The notes under the pieces were generated by a model that was given only the letters and a program-made list of their open reading frames with translations, had not been told where the DNA came from and did not search any database. A stretch of DNA of 64,000 nt from an uncultured bacterium (GTDB lineage: Bacteria; Armatimonadota; SYMT01), in the NCBI GenBank assembly GCA_964609085.1, contig CAZSRZ010000002.1, positions 29,477 to 93,476 on the forward strand, given 5' to 3'. Made by a program: the position numbers and the translations under genes. Of this stretch, positions 8,314 to 55,000 are shown in pieces; position 1 is the first letter of the stretch; every line of letters begins with the position of its first letter.

Positions 8314-9246
8314 CTATGCGGGCGCCGAGGTCCGGTCGCGGGGCGTCAGCCACTGGAGCTTCGCGCCGCTCGGGCGAATCCGCGCGGGCGTGCCGTCCAG
8401 CAACTCGCCGTCCAGCGTGGGCACAAGGACGGAGGTCGAGTCAACTTGCACTTCCCGGACTCGCCAGGATCGGACGCCGGGGTGGCGCACATGCCCGCCA
8501 GAAAAGATGGAAGGGAACTGGCGCAGCAGCTCCAGTCGCGGGATGTCTCCCACGAGCACCACATCGAGCAGCCCATCGTCGATCACGGCATCCGGTGCGA
8601 TGCGCATCCCGCCGCCGTAGCAGGCCCCGTTGCCAAACGCCACCAGCCATGCTGAGCCGGCGTACGCCAATTCCGCACCGTCGTCGCCCACCAGACGCAT
8701 CTCGATGGGGGGAGGATTGAATCGCGGGAGGGTGCACAGCAGGGCTGTTGCATATGCCGGAGCACCGGTCAGCCAGGTGAATCGCGAGTTCACCGCCTGC
8801 GCAACGGCTGCGTCGAGACCCACCCCAGCGACGTTGACGAACACCGACTCGTTCCAGAGCCAGAGATCGATCGGACGCGTGTTGCCGCTCGCCACCAACT
8901 CCGCCAGCTCCGCAGGGGAGTTCGGCGCCGTCAGTGATCGGACGAGGTCATTGCCCGTCCCCGCGGGCAGGATGCCGACCCGCACGGTCCCCACCCGACC
9001 TGCGTCGTGGAGCCCCTGAACGGCATCGCGCAGGGTTCCATCTCCCCCGATCACGAGCAGCGTGGAGACATCCTCCCCCAACCCGGATGCCAGGCGACGC
9101 GCATCCCCTGGAGCAGAAGTTGGCAGCACGATGGGCGTACCGTGCCGAGCCTGTACGCAGGCCTCCAACTCGCGCAGCCGGGACTCCCCGCGCCCTCGCC
9201 CGGAGCGGGGGTTGCCCAGTAGCGCGACCCGACCCACCTGCTCCAC
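8314..9246 (-). CDS. Diacylglycerol-kinase catalytic-domain lipid kinase (YegS/BmrU family)
   Basis: VALLGNPRSGRG ... LLVIGGDGTLRDAVQGL ... GILPAGTGNDLVRSL are DAGK_cat motifs. GTG start at 9246, 20 nt below the upstream gene stop. Confidence 0.75.
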   Translation of the reverse strand: MEQVGRVALLGNPRSGRGRGESRLRELEACVQARHGTPIVLPTSAPGDARRLASGLGEDVSTLLVIGGDGTLRDAVQGLHDAGRVGTVRVGILPAGTGNDLVRSLTAPNSPAELAELVASGNTRPIDLWLWNESVFVNVAGVGLDAAVAQAVNSRFTWLTGAPAYATALLCTLPRFNPPPIEMRLVGDDGAELAYAGSAWLVAFGNGACYGGGMRIAPDAVIDDGLLDVVLVGDIPRLELLRQFPSIFSGGHVRHPGVRSWRVREVQVDSTSVLVPTLDGELLDGTPARIRPSGAKLQWLTPRDRTSAPA

Positions 9247-30291: not shown

Positions 30292-31209
30292 TCATGCGGC
30301 GTGCTCAATGGCGTCCGTCGACGCCTCTCGGACGGGGCGGTCCGGTGCCTCAGCCGCCGCCCGCTCCAATTCGGCCCACGTCACCCGCGGTCGGATTCCG
30401 TACTCGATGTAAAGCGGCTGCTGCTCGATGACGAAGAAACGCCGACCCAGCCGGCACGCCGCTTCTGCCGTGGTTCCCGTGCCGCCGAAGGGGTCGAGCA
30501 CCAGATCATCGGGACGGCTGCAGGCCCTCACCACTCGCTCGATGAGGGCCAGAGGCTTCTCCGTGCTGTGCAGCTTCTTGCCGTCGCCCGCCTTCTTCCG
30601 CGAGTCGCCGTTGCAGATCGGGAAGCGCCAGACGCTGCGCATCTGCTTACCGCCGTTCTCTTCCTTCATCTGCTGGTAGTTGAACGTGTAGCCCCGGGCA
30701 TGCCGAGCGCTCTTCGCCGCCCAGATCATCTCCTCGTGAGCATTGCAGAACCGGACTCCCCGGAAGTGGGGGGTCGGGTTGTTCTTTTCCCAGACGACGG
30801 TGTTGAGGAACCAGTAGCCCAGGTCCTGCATCTGCGTGCCGATCCGGAACAGGTTGTGGTACATCCCGATCACCCACAGGGTGCCGTTGTCCTTCAGCAC
30901 GCGCCGGCACTCCACCAGCCACTCCCGGCAGAACTCATCATACTCGGCGTAGCTGCCGAACTGGTCCCATGCATCGTCCACGGCGTCGACGAGGCTATCG
31001 TCCGGCCGTCGCAACTCCTGCTGCAACTGCATGTAGTAGGGCGGGTCGGCGAAGATCAGGTCGACGGAGCGGTCGGGCAAATCCCGCAGCACCTGGCGGC
31101 AGTCGCCCTGCACGACCCAAGACGTATCGAGCGGGAAGTGCTGGCCGGGCTGGTGGAGAGTAAAGCGAGGCGAGGTCGGGTTGGGCGGCATGGGCGGTGG
31201 ACTCCACAT
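30292..31209 (-). CDS. Beta-class N6-adenine (or N4-cytosine) DNA methyltransferase, CcrM/M.HinfI-like; orphan
   Basis: Motif IV DLIFADPPYYM precedes motif I DPFGGTGTTAEAA, the beta-class order, and the N-terminus resembles CcrM. No restriction endonuclease ORF lies on either side. Confidence 0.85.
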   Translation of the reverse strand: MWSPPPMPPNPTSPRFTLHQPGQHFPLDTSWVVQGDCRQVLRDLPDRSVDLIFADPPYYMQLQQELRRPDDSLVDAVDDAWDQFGSYAEYDEFCREWLVECRRVLKDNGTLWVIGMYHNLFRIGTQMQDLGYWFLNTVVWEKNNPTPHFRGVRFCNAHEEMIWAAKSARHARGYTFNYQQMKEENGGKQMRSVWRFPICNGDSRKKAGDGKKLHSTEKPLALIERVVRACSRPDDLVLDPFGGTGTTAEAACRLGRRFFVIEQQPLYIEYGIRPRVTWAELERAAAEAPDRPVREASTDAIEHAA

Positions 31210-31478
31210 ATAGAGTCGGCGGTTCGAGTCGTGGGATTCAGTCAGGTGCGTTCGATAGACCGTGAAGCGGTTGCCGCAGGGCGATCGCTGCCCACGCCGC
31301 CGCAATGGGCGGGGCCCGTAGAGGAGGAGATGGCGCCGTGGGGCGCGAAAACGGCATCGTTCGGCATCTACCCGGGATCGGCAGTGTTCCAATTAGATGC
31401 TGGGGCTCGGGCTTCCCCGAGGCCGAGGAGCGCCAGGTTGGCGAACTGAACCCCGTCTGAACTGCCCAGGAGACCGCC

Positions 31479-32759: not shown

Positions 32760-33716
32760 TCAGACCCTGTTTGGCGGCTCCTCGCCCCGAAGCACGGCCA
32801 CCAGGTTGCGGACACAGGTTCGCGTCATTCCGTGCCTGGCCACATAGCTCGCGCTGCCGATGTGTGGCGTGACAAAGATCCCCGGGGTGTGCAGCACGGG
32901 ATCGTCCGGCCGCGGTGGTTCCGGATCGGTTACATCCAGACCGGCGCCGGCGAGCCTGCCCGAGCGCACTGCCTCGACCAACGCCGCCTGATCGACGAGC
33001 GGGCCACGGCCTGTGTTGACGAGTACTGCCGACGGCTTCATTCGGGAAAGAGCTTCCGTTCCGATGAGTCCGACGGTGTCCGGCGTCAAGGCGCAGTGGA
33101 GGCTGACGAAGTCTGACTGCTGGAGCAACTCCTCAAATGGGAGGTACCGGGCGCCGAGAGCCACTTCCAGCTCCGGCTTCCGCGACCGGCCCGTATAGAG
33201 CAGGCGCATCCCGAACCCCTGCGCTCTCCGCGCCACGGCAGTCCCGATGCGTCCCAGGCCGACGATGCCGAGCGTCGCTTCGTGGACGTCGCGCCCCCAG
33301 AGCAGTCCCTGGGCCCACTGCCACCGGGCCTCTCGTGCGGCCGTCTGACCCTCGCCGAACCGTCGCGCGGCCGCCAGCAGCAAGCCGAATGCGACGTCCG
33401 CCGTCGCCTCCACCAGCACGTCCGGCGTGTTCGTCACCACGACTCCGCAGGCCCTGGCGGCGGCGACGTCGATGTTGTCGTAGCCGACACCGAACTGTGC
33501 CACCACCCGCAGGCCTGGTCCGGCGGCGGCGAGGACGGTGGCATTCACCGGAGCTCCATTGACCGGGAGCAGCCCGGCCAGCCCGGGGACACCGGCGAGC
33601 ATCTCCGTTTGCGTGGCGCGTTCCGCCTGCGTCCGAACCTCAACGGCAGCCACGTCTCGAAGCGGCGTCAACTCGCTGTCGGCCACAGGACCCGTGATCC
33701 AGACCCTCGGGCGCAT
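32760..33716 (-). CDS. D-isomer-specific 2-hydroxyacid dehydrogenase (glyoxylate/hydroxypyruvate reductase-like)
   Basis: NAD-binding GIVGLGRIGTAVARRA with the catalytic-domain R, E and H context (VNTGRGPLVD, PHIGSAS). Confidence 0.9.
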   Translation of the reverse strand: MRPRVWITGPVADSELTPLRDVAAVEVRTQAERATQTEMLAGVPGLAGLLPVNGAPVNATVLAAAGPGLRVVAQFGVGYDNIDVAAARACGVVVTNTPDVLVEATADVAFGLLLAAARRFGEGQTAAREARWQWAQGLLWGRDVHEATLGIVGLGRIGTAVARRAQGFGMRLLYTGRSRKPELEVALGARYLPFEELLQQSDFVSLHCALTPDTVGLIGTEALSRMKPSAVLVNTGRGPLVDQAALVEAVRSGRLAGAGLDVTDPEPPRPDDPVLHTPGIFVTPHIGSASYVARHGMTRTCVRNLVAVLRGEEPPNRV

Positions 33717-33718
33717 CG

Positions 33719-34441
33719 CTACCCCTCTCTCCGGGCCCGGACGCATAAAAACCCCGGCTCACGCATCAGTTCCGCATGCGCGGCGGGGTCGGCCGCCGCG
33801 AAATCGTCCGTCGGCAGAGGCTCCAGACTGCCATCCAGGCGATATCCCGCCTCCAGTACCGGGTTCAACACGGCAGAGAGGGGGCGCCGGTAGGACGGCA
33901 CCACGACCGGGGTGCCGAAACCGCGCCAGGGAGTCGATTGCACCTCGACGGCGTGATAGCTGTCCGTCCACCTCATCCGCCACGCCGAGGCCGGATGCTC
34001 ACACGAGAAAACCAGCCAACCCCCCGGCCTGGTGATGCGGCGGAACTCCGCCATCACCGCCCGCCAATCGAGGACATAATCCAACGCCAGAGCGCTGACG
34101 ATGCCGTCGAATCGGCCGTCTTCGAAGAGCGAAAGTGGCGTGCCCAGGTCCCAGAGATCCGCTCGGGCGCGGTCCCCCAGCCGAGCGCGGAACTCCGCCA
34201 GCATCGCCGGGGAGACATCAATGCCGTGCACCTGGGCGCCCCGTCCGACCAGCGCTTCCGCGTAGGCGCCCGGTCCGCAGCCGGCATCCAGCACCTGCAG
34301 CCCCTCCAGGGCCGGAAGCAGTGAGAGCACGGCCGGCCGGTCGTAGTAGGCGTTGTGCGGCTTTGTGTCGACTCGCGCGGCATACGGACCGGCCAGTTGC
34401 TCATACGCGGCCAATGCGAGAGGTTCGTTGAGCTTCTCCAT
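33719..34441 (-). CDS. Class I SAM-dependent methyltransferase
   Basis: Motif I VLDAGCGPGAYAE, motif post-I HGIDVS and motif II FDGIVSALAL. ATG at 34441. Confidence 0.8.
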   Translation of the reverse strand: MEKLNEPLALAAYEQLAGPYAARVDTKPHNAYYDRPAVLSLLPALEGLQVLDAGCGPGAYAEALVGRGAQVHGIDVSPAMLAEFRARLGDRARADLWDLGTPLSLFEDGRFDGIVSALALDYVLDWRAVMAEFRRITRPGGWLVFSCEHPASAWRMRWTDSYHAVEVQSTPWRGFGTPVVVPSYRRPLSAVLNPVLEAGYRLDGSLEPLPTDDFAAADPAAHAELMREPGFLCVRARREG

Positions 34442-34454
34442 CGGGGCACTCCGG

Positions 34455-34949
34455 TCAGTACGTCCAGTCCTGTTTCTGCGCCAGCGCCAGGACACCCAGC
34501 AGGCACTCCGGGCTTGGCCGCCCTCGAGGACCGCTGCTGATCCAGAAGCACGAGAGCTTTCCAAGGCTGTCGATGAGGTAGACCGAGGATGCCCGATAGC
34601 AGGTGTATCCGTTCGGTCGCTGCTCGTGCGGTTCGTAGACGTCCAGGAGTTCCCCCACCGCGCCGTCCTCATCCACCAGAATCCGCGGCCGGATCTTGAA
34701 CTGCTCGCGAAACACCCGGTGTTCCTCGCGGCCGCCCCGCACCATGAAGACGAGCTCCGTATTCATGCCACGCAGGATGTGCATGAAGGTGCTCCAGAGG
34801 GCGAACTCGCCCCGAGTGGTGTGTCAGAACTCGCCGCGACACGTGTGGATGATGATCATCTTGCCGAGGAAATCCCGGGATCGCCACACTCTGTCCTCCG
34901 TGTCGCGCAGCTCCAGATCGAGATCCTGTCCGTTCACCAGGCGCGGCAT
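34455..34949 (-). CDS. Thioredoxin-fold redoxin (AhpC/TSA/redoxin family) interrupted by one in-frame TGA (codon 42, nt 34826-34824): candidate selenoprotein or recent pseudogene
   Basis: The read-through translation is MPRLVNGQDLDLELRDTEDRVWRSRDFLGKMIIIHTCRGEF-TGA-HTTRGEFALWSTF...RASSVYLIDSLGKLSCFW. The C-terminal half (ORF 34455..34784) has the redoxin beta-strand pattern. The TGA falls where the active-site Cys motif is expected. See the hairpin feature below. Confidence 0.55.
34797..34826 (-). promoter_or_regulatory. SECIS-like element: UGA + 10 nt + hairpin GGGCG-AGUU-CGCCC
   Basis: Read directly from sequence. The loop GU lies at about +21/+22 from the U of UGA (E. coli fdhF has G23/U24). 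The hairpin overlaps an imperfect 13-nt direct repeat (TCGCGGCGAGTTC / TCGGGGCGAGTTC) that flanks the TGA. Confidence 0.3.
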
Positions 34950-34952
34950 GGG

Positions 34953-35141
34953 TCACAGGCCCTCACTGGCGTGGGGAGGCGCCGGGCGAAACAGCGCGAA
35001 GCAGCTCATGCATCGGAGCGACTCCATTCCATGGGTCATGACCACCTCCAACGTACCGCAGCACTCGGGGCAGAAATCCCGGTCGGAGATCTCCATACGC
35101 ATCACATCACCGCGAACCACGGCCTCGGTCACAAATCGCAT
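34953..35141 (-). CDS. Small 4-Cys zinc-ribbon-like protein (62 aa; CPECCG ... CMSC)
   Basis: Intact ORF whose stop lies 3 nt upstream of the redoxin ATG and whose 5' end overlaps the ferredoxin gene by 13 nt (translational coupling). The pairing of C-x-x-C-C with C-x-x-C suggests metal binding. Confidence 0.35.
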
Positions 35142-35572
35142 TGGAGTTCTGGAGCCGCTGAGAGCGGCTGGCTTGCGGGCGGCTGGCTGGAGAGTGGATT
35201 ACTGGCGAACGCGAACTCAGCCACCGGGCGACCGCCGATGAGGTGCTCCTGGATGATCCGCTCGCATACCTCGGGGGTAACTCCAGCATACCAGGTGCCG
35301 TCCGGATAGACGACGGCGGTGGGGCCTTGACGGCATATCCGCAGGCATCCAACCTTGCTTCGGTAGACAGCGCCGTTCACCAGCCCCAGTTCCTTCAACC
35401 GGCGCTTCAGGTAGTCCCAAGTCGCCAGGCCGACTTCGGACGAGCAGCAGTCTGGCCCGACGCACAGCAGCATGTGCCGCCGGTACTCACCGATACCGAG
35501 CGCCTCGGCGATGCGTTCGAGCTGGCCACGCGGGGGCAGAGCCTCTTCTTCTGGGGTGAGTTCAACCGCCAT
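35129..35572 (-). CDS. Thioredoxin-like [2Fe-2S] ferredoxin
   Basis: CVGPDCCSS ... [21 protein letters not shown] is the Cys ligand pattern of Trx-like 2Fe-2S ferredoxins (NuoE/Aquifex Fd4-like). Confidence 0.75.
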
Positions 35573-35580
35573 GCATCCCC

Positions 35581-36105
35581 CTACCGCAAGATCTCCCACA
35601 CCAGGTGGTCCAGTTCCGGCACGATCAGCTTCTCCAGTGCCAGCTTCACCGCGTTCGTGCTGCCGGGCATGCTGAAGATGAGTCGGTTTGAGTAGACTCC
35701 CGCGGTCGCCCGGCTCAACATCGCCGCGGGGCCGACCTGTTCGTAGCTGAGCACCCGGAAGATCTCTCCGAAGCCGGGGAGAGTCTTTTCCAGGAGGCCG
35801 GTAACGGCGTCATAAGTCGTGTCCCGCTTTGCGATCCCGGTGCCGCCATTGATGAGGATGGCGAGCGCCGGGGTGGTAGCGATGATGCGGTGTATCGCGG
35901 CCTCAATCAGACTCGGCTCGTCGCGCACGATCTCGTGGAACACCACCTGGTGGCCCGCGGCTTCCAGTTGCTCACGGATGGTCCGCCCGCTGGTGTCCGT
36001 CTCCGGGGTCCGCGTGTCGCTGGCGGTGATGATTGCGCAAGTAACGGGACCGCGCTCGGCGGCGGCGGCGCGGTGGGCCTGAGTTGAGGGACTGGCCTCG
36101 GACAT
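35581..36105 (-). CDS. moaB: Molybdenum cofactor biosynthesis protein MoaB/MogA family
   Basis: The MoCF_biosynth fold is indicated by ITASDTR ... [15 protein letters not shown] ... [19 protein letters not shown]. Confidence 0.8.
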
Positions 36106-36230
36106 GGAATCTCCCGCCGGTCAGCCGAGCCGGAGTAGCTGCGGGTGCGGCCATTGATTGTAGTCCCCACACCACCCACAGACAAAGGGTAAACCCCCGG
36201 GCGGAGGCGCTCCACGCGGGGTCCCCGGCG

Positions 36231-37277
36231 CTACAGGAGTACCCGCATTCCTGTCGCCGCGCTTTCGTAGGCGGCGAGGCACATCGCCGTGGAAACCTTT
36301 CCGCCGTGGGCGTCACAGTCCGGCAGTTCGTCGCGCAGCAACTGGTCAATCCAGGGTCGGGGGACGGCGGCGATCCGCTCGCCGTGGGTCTGCGGGATCG
36401 GCATGTGGATTTCCTCAAACCGCTGCCCCGCCCCGCGACGGAGCAGCTTCAGCGGGGCCGCCCCGGGCGGCGCGTGCGGGGTGGAGACGCCGTCGCCGAA
36501 GTAGTGGTGGAGCGTGGCCTGGTCGCCGTAGATCTCCGTGGTGATCTCGGCACCCAGGGTAACGGAGGCATTGTAGAGCAGGCCAAACGAGCGGTCGGCG
36601 AAGCGGTAGATTGCCATCCCGGTATCGTCCGGAGCGCAGTTCGTGAGCGCGTTGCCGATTTCCGCCATCACGCTGACCGGCTTGCCCAGCATCCAGTAGA
36701 GGAAGTCCGCAGCGTGGACGGCGTCGTCCATGAACATGCCTTTGTTGGCCACCGGTTCGATATGCCAGCGGCTGGGGCCGGTGACGAACGTCTCGTTGAA
36801 GAGGAGATTCAGGCAGTGTCGGCGGCGCAGGGTGCCGATCTTGCCGAAGATCCCCTCCTCTGCCATTTGCTTCATCCGCTGATTGACGGGATCGCAGCGC
36901 ATCTGGAACGCCATCCGCAGGGTGACTCCGGCCCGTTCTACCGCCTGGATGATCGTGTCGCAGTCCGCCACGGTGAGGGCCATCGGTTTCTGGAGCAGGA
37001 TCTGTTTGCCCGCCGCTGCCGCAGCAAGGCAGTGCGCCGTGTGTTTGTTGGTCTCACTGGTGACGATGACGGCGTCGATGTCCGGCCGACCGAGTAGATC
37101 CTCCAGGTGGGGAGAGTAGTCCATCCCGAAGGAGGCTGCCTGCTTCTCGCCCCGCGCGGTGTCATCGTCCCAGGCAGCCACCAGGCGCACGTCGTCCCAC
37201 TGCTTCATCTGGTTGCAGTACATGACGACGTGCCCGTGGGCGAAGCTGATCACCCCAATCCCGATCTTCTTCCCCAT
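36231..37277 (-). CDS. Gfo/Idh/MocA family oxidoreductase (cytoplasmic)
   Basis: MGKKIGIGVISFAHGHV Rossmann N-terminus and the LLQKPMAL motif. Confidence 0.85.
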   Translation of the reverse strand: MGKKIGIGVISFAHGHVVMYCNQMKQWDDVRLVAAWDDDTARGEKQAASFGMDYSPHLEDLLGRPDIDAVIVTSETNKHTAHCLAAAAAGKQILLQKPMALTVADCDTIIQAVERAGVTLRMAFQMRCDPVNQRMKQMAEEGIFGKIGTLRRRHCLNLLFNETFVTGPSRWHIEPVANKGMFMDDAVHAADFLYWMLGKPVSVMAEIGNALTNCAPDDTGMAIYRFADRSFGLLYNASVTLGAEITTEIYGDQATLHHYFGDGVSTPHAPPGAAPLKLLRRGAGQRFEEIHMPIPQTHGERIAAVPRPWIDQLLRDELPDCDAHGGKVSTAMCLAAYESAATGMRVLL

Positions 37278-37325
37278 CCGTTCGATCCGATCTCTCTCTG
37301 AAGCTCACCGACCCGTCGTGCCGGA

Positions 37326-38573
37326 TCAGGCTGAGGTCACCGACCACTGGTGCGGGCGCAGAGCCAGCGCCGTCCGGACGGCCTCTTCCAGTGGAAGCTG
37401 TCCCTTGGCGCGCTCCTCGATCAACTTTGCCTTGTCCGCCTCGGGCACGCCGCCGTTCAGCACCACGCCGCGGAAGATCTGATCGTGGTAGTAGCGGTTC
37501 TTCGCCACGACGGCATCGTGCACGGCCTTCGCCTGCGACGCGATGGGTCCGGCATCGATCATCGCCAGGTTCACGCCCTGGGCCAGCGCTGCGGCGTCCG
37601 TGGTGAGCACCATCTCATCGTCGATGCGGATGTTGTAGCTGCCGGATTTCAGTCCTGTAACTCGCAGCACGTAGCGGTTGAGTTCCTCGACGATCGGCAC
37701 CCACTCCAGAATTGCGCGCCCACGCGGATCAATGTGCCAGGGCAGCGCGTCATCCGCGCGCTCGAAACTGATTCCACCGCGCTCGCTCTTCAGCTTGCTG
37801 ATCTTGCATCCGACGGCCTTTCCGGCGCGACGACGGCCGGCATCCACGGCGGCTTCGGTGACGAGTGGCCCGGCACCGAGGCCCTTGAGGATCGCCCACG
37901 CCATGAGATACTGCCCCGTCGCCCCGGGGTGGACGGCGTCCCCGCCGTTGATCCGGAGTTTTGGATCGCGGTCACGGGCCTTCTGGAGGGCGGCGACGTG
38001 CGGATGGAACTGATCGACGAAGGTAAAGCCGTTCTCGTCGGCCACGGCTTTGGCATTAGCCGCAAACGTCTCCAGGGTCTGGTTGTAGCCTTCCAGCGCG
38101 GAGCCGTCTTCTTTTTTCTCCACCGGGCTGGATGAGAGGATGGCGGTGCGCACCTTCGCGGCTTTGAGCTGTTCCGCCATTCCCTTTAGCCCGACGACGT
38201 AGGCCTGCAGCCGGGCGGGGTCCGGCGGCTGTCGGTAGCCGCCATCGTTCATGCCGAAGGTAATGGTGCACGCCGTGGGCTGGAACGTGAGGATGTCGCG
38301 GACCGTTCGGCGGTTGCCGCCCGTCGAGGTGTCGCCGCCGATGCCCACATTCCGGAACGCCAGGCTCCACGTTGGGTGGCGGCTGACGACAAAGGCCTCG
38401 ACGTAGTTGGAGTGGAGGAGTTGCTCGGTGATGCTGTCCCCGATCATCACCACGCGATCGCCATCCCGAAAGAAGCCAGCGGGAGCATCCGCGGCCAGAA
38501 TCGGCCGGCCCAGGTCGTGAGCGCCCAGCGTCAGGGCGGAGGCCGTCAGGCCCAGAAAACATCTTCGATCCAT
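37326..38573 (-). CDS. Tat-exported SGNH/GDSL-family hydrolase with C-terminal beta-rich domain
   Basis: Tat signal MDRRCFLGLTASALTLGA. GDSL block I is VVMIGDSITEQ, and the DAVHP catalytic His block is present. Confidence 0.8.
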   Translation of the reverse strand: MDRRCFLGLTASALTLGAHDLGRPILAADAPAGFFRDGDRVVMIGDSITEQLLHSNYVEAFVVSRHPTWSLAFRNVGIGGDTSTGGNRRTVRDILTFQPTACTITFGMNDGGYRQPPDPARLQAYVVGLKGMAEQLKAAKVRTAILSSSPVEKKEDGSALEGYNQTLETFAANAKAVADENGFTFVDQFHPHVAALQKARDRDPKLRINGGDAVHPGATGQYLMAWAILKGLGAGPLVTEAAVDAGRRRAGKAVGCKISKLKSERGGISFERADDALPWHIDPRGRAILEWVPIVEELNRYVLRVTGLKSGSYNIRIDDEMVLTTDAAALAQGVNLAMIDAGPIASQAKAVHDAVVAKNRYYHDQIFRGVVLNGGVPEADKAKLIEERAKGQLPLEEAVRTALALRPHQWSVTSA

Positions 38574-39024
38574 CACGCCGCTCCTCTCGTCCCGACCGTG
38601 TGCCCGGACACTCCCCACCCATTCGGGACGGGAGCCCAACGTCCCTTCACGACGCCACAGGCGAGGGGACGGGTATCGGGCTCGAGGAGGCCGGAATCAC
38701 CGATTCTTGGGATGAGCCGGGCGATGGACGGCTTCCACCTGGGGGTCGATTGCTGCGGGAGCCGCCGCGGCACGGCCCGCATCCGCCATGGAAGCGCGGC
38801 CGCTCGCGGCGATTGCACTGGCGACGGGGGAATCGCATCATCATCCGCCTCCCACGGTTGGCGGGCGATCCGGCGCGGCGCATACTTCATGCAGCGGGTC
38901 CTTCGATTGACACCGGATGGCACCTGCCGCCGCACTTGCCGACTCCGCCTCGGCGGAAACGCACTGGGCGGATGCGGCCCTCCCTTTCTCGACCACCGCT
39001 CCGCGGAGATTGCCCGGCCCCGCC

Positions 39025-51175: not shown

Positions 51176-51224
51176 CGAGTCGCTCCCGTTTGGCAGCGTC
51201 TCTCGTCGCCGCCCGGTGTTCGTG

Positions 51225-51306
51225 TGCCGAAGGCGGGGGTCGAACCCGCACTCCTTTCGGAACCGGTTTTTGAGACCGGCGCGTCTGCCTATTCCGCCAC
51301 TTCGGC
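51225..51306 (-). tRNA. tRNA-Leu (anticodon CAA), type II with long variable arm
   Basis: Hand-folded from sequence: a 7-bp acceptor stem (GCCGAAG/CTTCGGC), anticodon loop CUCAAAA, T-arm GCGGG-TTCGACC-CCCGC and a long extra arm. CCA is not encoded. Confidence 0.85.
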
Positions 51307-51445
51307 CTGACCGGAAGTATAGGCAGCGACTAAGAACCCGTCAACGCCTCCGCCAGCCGGCTCCCCCGGATCAGAACCGGGCAGGAGAACCCCCCTGGGT
51401 GCACGAACGCGGATGCGGACCGATTGGCAGTATTGGAGGGCGGCA

Positions 51446-54400
51446 ATGGCGACGCTTCAGGTGACGTGTCCGCGCTGCGGCGCGCAGGGGGGGGTGGACG
51501 CTTCGTTTGCGGGCCGGCAGATCCGGTGCCGCTGCGGGACGGACTTCGTGGTGCCCGCGGTCAGCCCGGCCCCCGGCGCCACTCCTGGCCCGGCGTCCGG
51601 TCCCACCGGCTCAGCGGACACCTCTCCGGCTGACTGGAGCGTGGGTCTCGAGGTCGGCGGGCGGTTCCTGGTCACGGAGATTCTTGGCGGCCCGGCGCTC
51701 TGCCGAGTGGACGACCGAGTGTGGGAAACGACCCTGCTCGTGGCTACCGCCAGTGAGGGGGACGAGGATGGCTTCACCTCCGTCGCCGACCGCTGGGTGG
51801 CGCTGGGCACCCACCCCAACATCCAGGTCGCTTACTACCTTCATCGGCTCGGCGGCCGCGCCCGCCTGGTGATGGAGGATCCTGGTCCGAATTCGCTCGC
51901 GGACCTACCGGCCGCCGCGCTGGCATCGGACCCCGGACGCCTGTGCGATCTGGCGATCCAGTCCGCCTGGGGCTTGCTGGCGCTTCACGACGCGGGGATG
52001 GTCCACGGGCGGGTGCATGCGGCATGCCTGCGGGTCACGGGGCTCGACCTGGTTAAGCTGGGGGACATCACCTTCACGTTGACTCCGGGTGAGATGGCGC
52101 CTGCTCCGGAGGTGGCTGCCGGTGCATCGCCGGGACCTCCGGCCGACCTCTGGCAATGGGCGTCCGTCTTCCACAAGCTCGGAGGTGCCGCGGCACCTCC
52201 CGCCCTGCGCGAATTGCTCGATCGCTGCCTCGCGGCCGACCCGGCGCAGCGTCCCCGAGACCTCCGTGAGGCGGTGACGGGGCTGCAGTCGATCTACAAA
52301 CAGGCGCGCGGGGACTTCTACGCACGCCCCGCGCCGCGCACCTACGCCGCGGACACGGCAAGCAACCGCGGACTGGCGCTCCTGGCGATCGGGCGTCCCG
52401 AAGAAGCCGCCGGGTCGTGGGAAGAGGCGGTCCGCGTAGCTGCGGGTCACCTGGAGGCGACCTACCACCTCGCCCTCTACCAGTGGCGAAACGGCAAAAT
52501 CGCCGATGACGAGGTCGTGCGCCGGCTCACGCCGATTGTTGCGGCCAGCACCGACTGGATGGCACCGATGTTGCAGGGGCACGTCCAGGCTGAGCGTCTG
52601 GACCGTCGTTCTGCTCTACTCGGCTACGGGGAGGCCGAGCGACTCGGAGGCGGAGAAGCTGCGGCGGTGGCGCGCCGGAGAGTCGCCGCTATCCCGGCGG
52701 ACCACGGCGGGCACGAACTCGCCGAACACCCGCACGAGGTATGGAGTCTGGGGCTGACCCCCGACGGCTCACGCGTGGTCACGGCGAGCGGCGACTCGCT
52801 CCTCCGCGTCTGGGATCTTGCTTCCGGGGAAGTCACCCACGAGCTGGCGGGCCACCAACACTCCGTCCGGGCGTCGGCGCTGAATGCCGATGGACGATTT
52901 GCCATCTCTGGGAGTTGGGACGGCACCGCCAGGGTGTGGGACATCACGACGGGTGCCGCGGTCCGGCAACTCAAGGGGGAGGCGCCGATCCATTCCGTGG
53001 CGCTGAGTGCGGACGCCCGCTATGCCCTGTCTGGCGGGGACGACCCGGTGCTTCGCTTCTGGGCGACGCAGACGGCCCAGGTGGCACGGTCGATGGAAGG
53101 CCACACGGATTCGATCCAGGCGGTGGCCCTCAATGCCGATGGTCGCTTTGCGCTGTCGGCCGGCAGGGACGGGGCCGTCTTCCTCTGGGATGTCGCTCAG
53201 GCCAGGTGCCTGCAGACGCTGAGCGGGCACACCGGCATGGTTCGAGCGGTCGCGCTAAGCGGTGACGGTCGCGTGAGCGTCACCGCGGGAGAAGATCGGA
53301 CGCTGCGGCTTTGGGACAACGCAACGGGCGTCTGCGCCCGCGTTTTCGAGGGGCACCAGGATGCAGTTGACGCGGTGGCGATCGCCCTCGCGGCCGGCTG
53401 GATCGTGAGCGGCGGCAGGGATCGCACGCTCCGTGTATGGGAAGTTGCCACCGGGCGTTGCCGGCGCACCATCGGGGGCTATCTGGGCGGTGTGCTGGCG
53501 GTCGGGCTGACGCCGGACGCACGCATTTGCGTCACCGGCAGTGCGGAGAAAACGCTGCGAACGTGGGACCTCTCCGCCTTCACGGGGCCGGACGCGATCA
53601 GCATGTCCGCGCCTCCGGCGATCAGCCGTCCGGAGCGGTCGCAAGAAGCGCAGCGGGTTCAGCGCCAGTACCGGATGCTGGTTGAGAAGGCGGCGCTGGC
53701 GGAGAACCCGGCCGCGGAACTCAATCTGCTGCGGGAAGCCCGATCGCTGACGGGTCGCTCACGTGCGACCGAGGCTCGGGAGAGGTGGCAGCGCCTATCG
53801 GGCAGCATGGTTCGGTCCGGGTTGCGCGACGTCTGGCTGGGTCGGGTGTTTGACCCACCGGAGCAGCCGTGTACCGGTCTTGCCGTGCGGGAGGACGATC
53901 TGTGGGTGCTCTCGGGCAGCCCGGACGGCCGTCCCCGATTGTGGGAAGTGGCGTCCGGACGCTGCCTAAAACCCATGGATGCGCACGGCAGCGAACTCAC
54001 CGCCGTAGGGCTGAGTCCTGATGGCCGCTGGGCACTGGCGGGCAGCATGGAGGGCAGCCTCCGTCTGTGGGACGTCGAGCGAGGACGCACAGCCCATAGC
54101 TACCTGGGTGTCACTGTGCCGACTCGCGCCGCGTGCTTGAGCTCAGACGCCCGCTGGGTGCTCTCGGGGAGCGATGACGGCATGGTCCGCGTGTGGGATG
54201 TCGCCGGTGGACGGCTTGTGCGCGTGCAGGAGGGGCATGTCTCACCGGTTCAATCCGTCGCCTGGACGGCGGACGGCCGGTTCATGTTGTCGGGCGACAC
54301 GGGCGGCACCATCCGCCTTTGGGACGCCGCCTCCGGGGCGTGCCGGCAGGTGATCGACGACCAGGCCGGTTCCGTGATGGCGCTCTCCTGCGCCCGCGAT

Positions 54401-55000
54401 GGCATCCGGGCTCTGGCAGCCGAGCACGATGGAACGATCACCCTGCTGAATCTCGACGACGGTTCGGTGATCCATCGGCTGCAGACGGAACGTATCACGA
54501 AGGCGGCTCTCACCCCAGAGGGCCGCTGGGCGGTGCTGGCCACGGAGGCGGGTGAGGTCGTCGTGTGGGATCTCCCCACCGGCAGCCGCTTGGCGTCCGT
54601 CCCCTGCGGGCCGGTCGGCGCGTTCTGCCTCTCGCCGGATGGGCACTACCTGCTCACCGCCCCGCCGGAGGGCCCCATCAGCGAGTGGATCCTCGATTGG
54701 GACCTGGAGCTCCCCCCGGTGGAAGCGTGGTCAGACGCCGCTCGCCCCTACCTGGCCGCCTTCCTCCGAGTCCACCAACCCTATGCCGTTTACCTTGCGG
54801 CGACGCGGGATGTGTCCGATGAAGAGTTGGCCAATGCGCTGGTGCGCCGCCCCGAGCCGAACTGGACCTCGGAAAACTACCCGGAGTTGCTGGCTACGCT
54901 CGCACGAGTCGGGCTCGGCTGGCTGAAGTCCGAGCGCACGTTCCACGAACTGGAGTCCATGACCGAAGCGTTCGGTCGCGCCGCTGGGAGTGGCTCCTAG
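51446..55000 (+). CDS. Large multidomain protein: MJ0042-type zinc ribbon + degenerate Ser/Thr protein-kinase-like (pseudokinase) domain + TPR-like linker + two 7-bladed WD40 propellers
   Basis: N-terminal C-P-R-C-G...C-R-C-G ribbon. Kinase-fold remnants APE (PAPEVAAG) and D.W..G (DLWQWASVFHKLG) are present, but the catalytic loop is HGRVHAACL (no HRD Asp) and no VAIK Lys is evident. At least 14 WD40 repeats follow (GH...WD patterns, e.g. LRVWDLASG, ARVWDITTG). Confidence 0.85.
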   Translation: MATLQVTCPRCGAQGGVDASFAGRQIRCRCGTDFVVPAVSPAPGATPGPASGPTGSADTSPADWSVGLEVGGRFLVTEILGGPALCRVDDRVWETTLLVATASEGDEDGFTSVADRWVALGTHPNIQVAYYLHRLGGRARLVMEDPGPNSLADLPAAALASDPGRLCDLAIQSAWGLLALHDAGMVHGRVHAACLRVTGLDLVKLGDITFTLTPGEMAPAPEVAAGASPGPPADLWQWASVFHKLGGAAAPPALRELLDRCLAADPAQRPRDLREAVTGLQSIYKQARGDFYARPAPRTYAADTASNRGLALLAIGRPEEAAGSWEEAVRVAAGHLEATYHLALYQWRNGKIADDEVVRRLTPIVAASTDWMAPMLQGHVQAERLDRRSALLGYGEAERLGGGEAAAVARRRVAAIPADHGGHELAEHPHEVWSLGLTPDGSRVVTASGDSLLRVWDLASGEVTHELAGHQHSVRASALNADGRFAISGSWDGTARVWDITTGAAVRQLKGEAPIHSVALSADARYALSGGDDPVLRFWATQTAQVARSMEGHTDSIQAVALNADGRFALSAGRDGAVFLWDVAQARCLQTLSGHTGMVRAVALSGDGRVSVTAGEDRTLRLWDNATGVCARVFEGHQDAVDAVAIALAAGWIVSGGRDRTLRVWEVATGRCRRTIGGYLGGVLAVGLTPDARICVTGSAEKTLRTWDLSAFTGPDAISMSAPPAISRPERSQEAQRVQRQYRMLVEKAALAENPAAELNLLREARSLTGRSRATEARERWQRLSGSMVRSGLRDVWLGRVFDPPEQPCTGLAVREDDLWVLSGSPDGRPRLWEVASGRCLKPMDAHGSELTAVGLSPDGRWALAGSMEGSLRLWDVERGRTAHSYLGVTVPTRAACLSSDARWVLSGSDDGMVRVWDVAGGRLVRVQEGHVSPVQSVAWTADGRFMLSGDTGGTIRLWDAASGACRQVIDDQAGSVMALSCARDGIRALAAEHDGTITLLNLDDGSVIHRLQTERITKAALTPEGRWAVLATEAGEVVVWDLPTGSRLASVPCGPVGAFCLSPDGHYLLTAPPEGPISEWILDWDLELPPVEAWSDAARPYLAAFLRVHQPYAVYLAATRDVSDEELANALVRRPEPNWTSENYPELLATLARVGLGWLKSERTFHELESMTEAFGRAAGSGS

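Follow-up and report, generated by a model that had tools for sequence, protein, structure and literature searches.

Peroxiredoxin-like (Prx-like) selenoproteins have already been catalogued, among them a 'Prx-like thiol:disulfide oxidoreductase' with a UxxC or UxxU active site and a 'Peroxiredoxin-like family protein' (cd02970) with UxxS (PMC2398784, PMC13188914). No dedicated zinc-ribbon partner gene is mentioned in either of these catalogues. Here, we describe a locus from an uncultured bacterium of the Armatimonadota (lineage SYMT01; assembly GCA_964609085.1, contig CAZSRZ010000002.1, positions 29,477 to 93,476 of the forward strand) in which a redoxin gene interrupted by an in-frame UGA codon follows directly on the gene of a small cysteine-rich protein, hereafter called mini. 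The window is this whole stretch of 64,000 nucleotides (nt), and coordinates are counted from its first letter unless another locus is named. Like the catalogued Prx-like selenoproteins, the redoxin is built on an AhpC/TSA thioredoxin-fold (Trx-fold) scaffold, with its presumed selenocysteine (Sec, U) at the N-terminal nucleophile position before helix alpha-1. It shares with them the existence of Cys homologues and genes that annotation pipelines routinely truncate. Unlike them, it carries the motif U-[HP]-T-T (UxxT). Judged by its sequence, the protein appears to be a further variant of the known Prx-like selenoproteins, accompanied by what seems to be a previously undescribed, lineage-restricted zinc-ribbon partner.

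We consider it probable, though far from assured, that the genes form a compact chromosomal operon with a two-gene core, in which mini is the dedicated partner of a Sec redoxin decoded with the help of an mRNA hairpin. The redoxin (minus strand, 34455-34949) is an AhpC/TSA-fold protein of 164 aa with the motif C-RGEF-U-HTT and its Sec at position 42 (U42), and scores 29.7 bits against PF00578 (AhpC/TSA), above the family cut-off of 26. The UGA at 34824-34826 very probably encodes Sec. Searching databases with the redoxin family retrieved 101 clusters, most of them truncated to 103-109 aa and starting just past the TGA, and other relatives are annotated as split into pieces of 41 or 42 aa and 109 aa. 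In full-length homologues of 167 aa, an invariant Cys stands opposite the codon, within ...CRGEY-C-PTTRGEF.... Among genomic and metagenomic loci, the same codon is TGA in 21 distinct genes and TGC or TGT in four, which bears out the initial annotation of the redoxin as a thiol/selenol protein. Coding sequence is conserved on both sides of the codon, and the GC content of third codon positions (GC3) is 0.83 before it and 0.82 after it. No other TGA-split coding candidate occurs in the window. In the data searched, family members occur in Armatimonadota only, and NCBIfam selenoprotein models gave no match to the redoxin. One Sec-form homologue, in locus L015, contains a second in-frame TGA at a conserved Trp (EFAL*DTF, ~9137-9139), which is probably a sequencing error or the sign of a pseudogene.

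Ten nt past the UGA begins a hairpin, GGGGCG-AGUU-CGCCCU (minus strand, 34798-34813), consisting of a 6-bp stem and an AGUU loop. This hairpin is built by the codons for R-G-E-F-A, whose third positions are 0.95-1.0 conserved among Sec forms. The gene provides its own internal control, since the same RGEF peptide occurs just 5′ of the UGA, where third positions are only 0.48-0.90 conserved. Pair integrity follows the same division between forms: a single pair cell out of 108 is broken in the Sec forms (107/108 intact), against seven of 24 in the Cys forms (17/24 intact). One compensatory G-C to A-U change is found in L021, and one G-C to G-U change in L018. With synonymous conservation restricted to the Sec forms, the hairpin is a candidate bacterial selenocysteine insertion sequence (SECIS). 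As a separate observation, RGEF and a 9-nt string, GGCGAGTTC, flank the UGA on both sides (34796-34838; RGEF-U-HTT-RGEF). The downstream copy forms the hairpin, and the upstream RGEF copy varies freely at synonymous sites.

The active site of the redoxin combines features of different families. Profile alignment to ResA places U42 opposite Cys74, the first Cys of CPHC, and a Thr opposite Cys77. Alignment to Bcp4 places U42 opposite the Thr of TxxC, and the peroxidatic Cys position is occupied by Thr45. The resulting site is U-[HP]-T-T, often with a Cys five residues upstream. It departs both from the Prx motif PxxxTxxC, as neither Cys nor Sec stands at the peroxidatic position, and from CxxC, as the first position is U and all 27 sequences have Thr at the second. 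Of the other Cys residues, only C134, on a distal strand, is retained throughout the redoxin clade, with a single exception. Having no second active-site Cys, the redoxin would need an external reductant. An AlphaFold2 model of the Cys homologue P0005, which is 60% identical to the window redoxin, adopts a Prx/Trx fold, with a predicted local distance difference test (pLDDT) score of 71 that is low at the active-site loop. Its nearest folds are Bcp4 (3hjp, E 1e-11), Bcp1 (E 1e-10) and ResA, so that the model is equally close to BCP/PrxQ peroxiredoxins and ResA-type oxidoreductases. The redoxin sequence contains no signal peptide or membrane anchor, and the protein is therefore presumably cytoplasmic. 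We also observed that, in redoxin clades lacking mini, the motif MN-C-E (~position 65; L007-L015) mostly supplies an additional Cys, and that Thr64 (MNTE, 34749-34751) stands at that site in all 15 mini-linked sequences and in L003.

The mini gene (minus strand, 34953-35141) encodes a 62-aa CPECCG...CxSC protein and is missing from the gene calls of the source genome. A single-sequence search gave one homologue only, and a profile of locus-derived sequences was required to find more. That profile retrieved at least 79 homologous clusters, all 52-73 aa long and stand-alone, and the few that carry an organism name are all from Armatimonadota. A metagenome scan with a three-sequence alignment returned 15 loci, and an exhaustive HMMER scan of 1.84 billion representatives gave only 15 matches at E <= 1e-3. 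Pairwise differences average 0.27, 0.17 and 0.51 at the first, second and third codon positions, as expected of coding sequence. Lack of conservation would have marked the open reading frame (ORF) as spurious; homology and coding-type substitution instead indicate that mini is a real, conserved gene of a narrow lineage. The residues D22, C24, P25, E26, C27, C28, G29, L31, C44 and S46 are invariant, and five Cys are near-invariant: C24, C27 and C28 of CPECCG, and C44 and C47 of CxSC.

The initial annotation had also described the 62-aa protein as metal-binding; by sequence and structure prediction, mini is a predicted zinc ribbon. The AlphaFold2 model (pLDDT 88.9) is all-beta, with an N-terminal hairpin followed by a zinc ribbon, in which strands 30-36 and 39-44 flank the knuckles. 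Both the sequence and the model thus contain the two Cys knuckles and three-stranded ribbon of this fold. No structural neighbour was significant, and the best matches were zinc ribbons (ZifS, RPC10/Rpb9) at E > 0.6; a literature search on ZifS, the top match, found nothing related. Likewise, no curated family matched mini, the nearest being Zn_ribbon_6 with an E of 0.029, below its cut-off. Six mini homologues (P0108, P0126, P0133, P0137, P0141 and P0156) bear the JGI names 'tRNA(Ile2) C34 agmatinyltransferase TiaS' or 'McsA'. On homologues of 57-66 aa, these names have probably been carried over from zinc-ribbon similarity.

Mini and the redoxin lie within a run of six minus-strand ORFs at 32760-36105. 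In the direction of transcription, these encode a MoaB/MogA-family molybdopterin-binding protein (174 aa, 35581-36105), a Trx-like [2Fe-2S] ferredoxin (147 aa from its ATG, 35129-35572, with an alternative GTG start at 35599), mini, the redoxin, a class I S-adenosylmethionine (SAM)-dependent methyltransferase (240 aa, 33719-34441), and a D-2-hydroxyacid dehydrogenase resembling glyoxylate/hydroxypyruvate reductases (318 aa, 32760-33716). The initial annotation had described six tightly packed genes in these positions, and its coordinates are correct. Junctions range from -13 to +13 nt: +8 nt from the MoaB stop to the ferredoxin ATG, -13 nt (an overlap) between ferredoxin and mini, +3 nt from the mini stop to the redoxin ATG, +13 nt from the redoxin stop to the methyltransferase ATG, and +2 nt from the methyltransferase stop to the dehydrogenase ATG. 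The overlap of 13 nt and the spacing of 3 nt had been reported as such and can be read from the sequence; the spacing before the methyltransferase had been given as 14 nt and is 13 nt. The mini stop and the redoxin ATG also share a frame with one codon between them (TGA CCC ATG, 34949-34955). Read-through of this stop into a mini-redoxin fusion was considered and rejected, as frames and spacings differ in other loci. Because the frame relation is not kept elsewhere, we judge it a coincidence.

Comparison with about 20 related Armatimonadota loci, made by tblastn with the window proteins together with gene calls and Pfam marks on long contigs, reduces these six genes to two. Wherever the sequence of a locus extends far enough, the redoxin comes directly after mini, giving 15 distinct pairs. 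The gaps between them are -13, -13, -13, -8, -4, -1, 0, 0, 0, 3, 18, 23, 33, 78 and 110 nt, and are no longer than 3 nt in ten of the 15. Mini and redoxin are thus, as far as spacing indicates, usually translationally coupled. Their pairing persists while the upstream gene varies (ferredoxin, MoaB, GNAT, FMN reductase or unknown), and while the downstream gene varies (methyltransferase, dehydrogenase, cellulase, EF-P or DUF6932). The mini-linked redoxins form one clade and are all Sec forms.

The arrangement around the pair is fluid. With Fdx for ferredoxin, Prx for the redoxin, MT for the methyltransferase and HADH for the dehydrogenase, the order in the window is GDSL-GFO-MoaB-Fdx-mini-Prx-MT-HADH. 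It is MoaB-Fdx-mini-Prx-HADH in L002, L027 and L029, GDSL-GFO-MoaB-Fdx-mini-Prx(-cellulase) in L026 and L038, and MoaB-HTTM/VKGC-Fdx-mini-Prx(-EF-P) in L001 and L039. Without the ferredoxin, it becomes MoaB-mini-Prx(-HADH) in L021, L024 and L036, MoaB-GNAT-mini-Prx in L017, FMN reductase-mini in L025, and unknown-unknown-mini-Prx-DUF6932 in L032. The ferredoxin is therefore missing outright in L021, L024 and L036, and replaced in L017, L025 and L032 by a GNAT protein, an FMN reductase and an unknown protein, respectively; sister loci L024 and L038 differ in its presence. Where present, it overlaps or abuts the start of mini, by 13 nt in the window and by 4 nt in L001, L002 and L038. In its place, L025 has an FMN_red/flavodoxin-like reductase (738-1376) that overlaps the mini start by 4 nt, and L017 has a GNAT acetyltransferase (597-1010) that overlaps or adjoins it. 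Most related loci have MoaB upstream of mini, whose start it overlaps in L021 and L024. In L002, L016, L027, L029 and L036, the dehydrogenase gene follows the redoxin; in L021 it is found upstream on the opposite strand, and in L032, L038 and L039 other genes take its place. None of the related loci contains a counterpart of the methyltransferase; present in the window only, this gene is by this comparison a lineage-specific insertion outside the conserved unit.

Judged by gene order, then, mini and the Sec redoxin make up the conserved unit, with the ferredoxin as a frequent accessory, MoaB as a persistent neighbour and the dehydrogenase as a loose one. The initial annotation had gone further, proposing a small redox module of ferredoxin, mini and redoxin, co-translated with the methyltransferase. 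The pair survives from that module, the ferredoxin is not an obligate member of it, and co-translation with the methyltransferase is not supported, as this gene is absent from all other related loci. Neighbourhood conservation, which had been suggested as a check, gave a divided answer. Mini and redoxin are syntenic within the lineage; in 12 Armatimonadota loci with remoter redoxins (52-64% identity; Abditibacteriaceae and others), a hidden Markov model (HMM) search detected no mini, and no neighbour is shared. Clustering of redoxin neighbours revealed no other conserved partner, and only common GFO/IDH/MocA oxidoreductases recur.

We propose that the UGA at 34824-34826 is decoded as Sec with the aid of the hairpin downstream. 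The selenol of the redoxin would then reduce a peroxide or a disulfide, and itself be converted to a selenenic acid or a selenenylsulfide. As the redoxin has no second active-site Cys, we propose mini as its dedicated partner. Mini may act through its extra Cys28, which would lie beside the metal site and serve as a resolving or reducing thiol; an alternative route would be a metal-thiolate centre with redox activity. Where there is a Trx-like ferredoxin, it may feed electrons to the mini-redoxin pair, a part that could fall to the FMN reductase in one locus. We assign no part in the redox unit to MoaB, the dehydrogenase or the methyltransferase, which are its neighbours in the operon.

Several observations weigh against this proposal. 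None of selA, selB, selC or selD was seen in the 64-kb window, where a tRNA-Leu was the only tRNA found. The folding energy of the hairpin is unremarkable (minimum free energy z-score 0.37), its covariation lacks significance, the observed value being reached by 64 of 500 shuffles, and Rfam holds no family that matches it. The energy and covariation statistics are uninformative because the helix hardly varies. The mini-linked redoxins are 66-79% identical and represent one fairly narrow lineage, and their adjacency to mini could therefore be partly inherited rather than selected. Within the mini-linked clade, L003 (JAWLHY01) has a solitary redoxin with no mini within 10 kb, and distant mini relatives (CPECCGG...) do not adjoin redoxins. 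Further, of the 17 locus types in which the gene preceding mini can be seen, 11 have the ferredoxin and six lack it.

Some of these observations would be expected if the adjacency of mini and redoxin reflected shared ancestry only, and mini did something unrelated, such as binding nucleic acids as a small zinc ribbon. Its nearest folds are indeed transcription-type zinc ribbons, its distant relatives adjoin unrelated genes, L003 has the redoxin and no mini, and L031 has a divergent mini copy with no redoxin downstream. We nevertheless consider this explanation unlikely. The adjacency outlasts at least five upstream and at least five downstream gene replacements, mini stop and redoxin start overlap or abut in ten of the 15 distinct loci, and Sec is kept in every redoxin linked to mini.

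It is similarly doubtful that mini carries single electrons at a rubredoxin-like Fe(Cys)4 site and, instead of acting as a thiol partner, passes them from the ferredoxin or FMN reductase to the selenoprotein, in what would be a ferredoxin-dependent selenoperoxidase. Such a relay would suit the two CxxC knuckles in a ribbon fold, the overlap of the ferredoxin and mini genes, and the identity of the upstream gene, whose product is a ferredoxin in 11 of the locus types and, in L025, an FMN_red flavoprotein. Against it, mini matched no rubredoxin family, PF00301 included, at Pfam E <= 0.1, its motifs are CPECCG and CxSC rather than CxxCG ... CPxCG, and the folds it weakly resembles are zinc ribbons. 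The ferredoxin is also dispensable, as sister loci L024 and L038 illustrate. Trx-fold redoxins, moreover, work by two-electron thiol chemistry. A bolder idea, which we regard as a long shot, is that mini is a new type of minimal redox adaptor, whose metal-tetrathiolate and neighbouring free Cys would together allow the selenenic acid or selenenylsulfide of a UxxT selenoenzyme to be recycled by one-electron or flavin donors, namely the ferredoxin or, in L025, the FMN reductase. The system would then be a ferredoxin-dependent, thioredoxin-independent selenoperoxidase.

Very unlikely, in our view, is the reading closest to the initial annotation, in which all six genes form one dedicated pathway that joins electron delivery to the methylation and reduction of a small molecule. 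The genes share one strand and either overlap or are separated by 13 nt or less, and the series MoaB-ferredoxin-mini-redoxin-dehydrogenase recurs in L002, L027 and L029. There is also a sigma-70-like promoter match upstream of MoaB (TTGTCT-17-TACAAT, minus strand, 36157-36185), where the operon might start. This is the sole match on the minus strand in the 9 kb scanned, and it carries little weight because 1.0 such match is expected by chance. Set against these features, the methyltransferase is restricted to the window, the ferredoxin is missing from 6/17 locus types, and in several loci the dehydrogenase is inverted or gives way to another gene. The single strand and short or overlapping junctions are those of an operon; gene order across divergent genomes is not kept, and only mini-redoxin is invariant. 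Moreover, synteny in L026, L038, L021 and L036 extends beyond MoaB to the upstream genes for a GDSL lipase-like protein and a GFO/IDH/MocA oxidoreductase (36231-38639). They are as syntenic as the proposed pathway genes, so conservation in the clade exceeds any plausible pathway, and for GDSL, GFO and MoaB alike it partly reflects close relatedness rather than function. The six-gene idea is consequently only partly supported, with the conserved unit reduced to two genes; tight spacing alone had overstated the functional unit. Finally, that the TGA is a genuine stop, leaving a pseudogene or two small ORFs of 41 aa and 109 aa, is almost certainly wrong: gene callers do annotate the redoxin as split, yet 21 distinct sequences keep the TGA with the frame, the protein sequence on both sides and the downstream hairpin conserved, and full-length homologues have Cys at that codon.

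The remaining genes of the operon can be assigned to families with varying precision. The ferredoxin matches Aquifex Fd4 (1f37) and the N-terminus of the hydrogenase subunit HydB (7t2r_B) in the PDB at E ~1e-12. Its C37, C42, C76 and C80 align with the cluster ligands of 7t2r_B (C-x4-C ... C-x3-C) and are invariant in three orthologues, providing the four ligands expected on a Trx-like fold. It falls below curated thresholds for PF01257 (13.2 vs 24.8 bits), NF041612 (45 vs 150) and NF041613 (35 vs 195), and its match to NCBIfam fdxn_Clost (E 1e-11) is also below the cut-off. The MoaB-family protein contains a PF00994 domain (E 3e-31, 108 bits), and scores 160 bits against TIGR02667, short of the cut-off of 222. 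The methyltransferase matches PF08241 (E 1e-19) and has no specific NCBIfam equivalog. The dehydrogenase matches PF02826 (E 3e-61) and reaches 310 bits against PRK13243, whose cut-off is 455. An Rfam scan found no riboswitch or SECIS family, and a c-di-AMP match upstream of MoaB was below threshold (17 vs 38 bits).

Two of the related loci contain an additional gene between MoaB and the ferredoxin (L001, 2800-4323; L039, 3105-4544). Its product is a membrane protein of 480-507 aa resembling HTTM and vitamin-K-dependent gamma-carboxylase (VKGC), with a PF05090 match at E 2e-79 and a VKGC lumenal domain, and the gene overlaps the MoaB stop. We considered whether the Glu-rich mini might be its substrate, and rejected this as a general explanation, HTTM being present in two loci only. 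The surroundings of the operon are ordinary chromosome, encoding HPF, PFK, DnaE, an amidase and similar proteins. Elsewhere in the window, an N6/N4 DNA methyltransferase (minus strand, 30292-31392; PF01555, E 3e-60) has no restriction enzyme among the neighbouring genes scanned. A 1195-aa protein with many WD40 repeats (plus strand, 51413-55000) adjoins tRNA-Leu-CAA (51224-51306), the only tRNA gene of the window.

The redoxin adds a clear selenoprotein family to the Armatimonadota, a phylum for which a literature search found no paper describing any selenoprotein, and it corrects a widespread truncated or split annotation. A UxxT selenoenzyme without a second active-site Cys must be recycled, and the five-Cys mini is a concrete candidate for this task. 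If the partnership of Sec redoxin and mini is true, the locus would encode a two-component selenoenzyme, and not a new pathway of the kind proposed earlier.

Known systems resemble parts of this unit. The best profile match (E 3e-11) and fold match (Foldseek E 1e-11, TM ~0.7) are to BCP/PrxQ, represented by Sulfolobus Bcp4 (3hjp). Unlike those enzymes, the redoxin has Thr at the Cys position of PxxxTxxC, and its Sec three residues earlier. Profile and fold matches to ResA/TlpA are equally good and set U opposite the nucleophilic first Cys of CPHC, but here Thr takes the place of the second CxxC Cys, and there is no signal peptide or anchor. Glutathione peroxidases have the active site U/C-G-x-T, in which the selenol has UxxT spacing, and their motif is listed as UxxT (PMC13188914). 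The redoxin reproduces this spacing on a Trx fold, yet has no sequence match to PF00255. The ferredoxin aligns over ~90 residues, with all four Cys, to Aquifex Fd4, the Clostridium pasteurianum 2Fe ferredoxin and the HydB/NuoF-like N-terminal domain, and differs from these Trx-like ferredoxins in its N-terminal extension of ~30 aa and its Pro/Ser-rich tail. For the combination of mini and redoxin, a lead comes from E. coli thioredoxin 2 (TrxC), in which a Trx fold is fused to an N-terminal zinc finger with two CxxC motifs. In both cases, a four-Cys zinc-binding module, predicted for mini, is combined with a Trx-fold redox protein. Unlike TrxC, however, the two are separate polypeptides in the Armatimonadota locus, no sequence similarity was detected between the systems, and mini additionally possesses a beta-hairpin and a fifth Cys.

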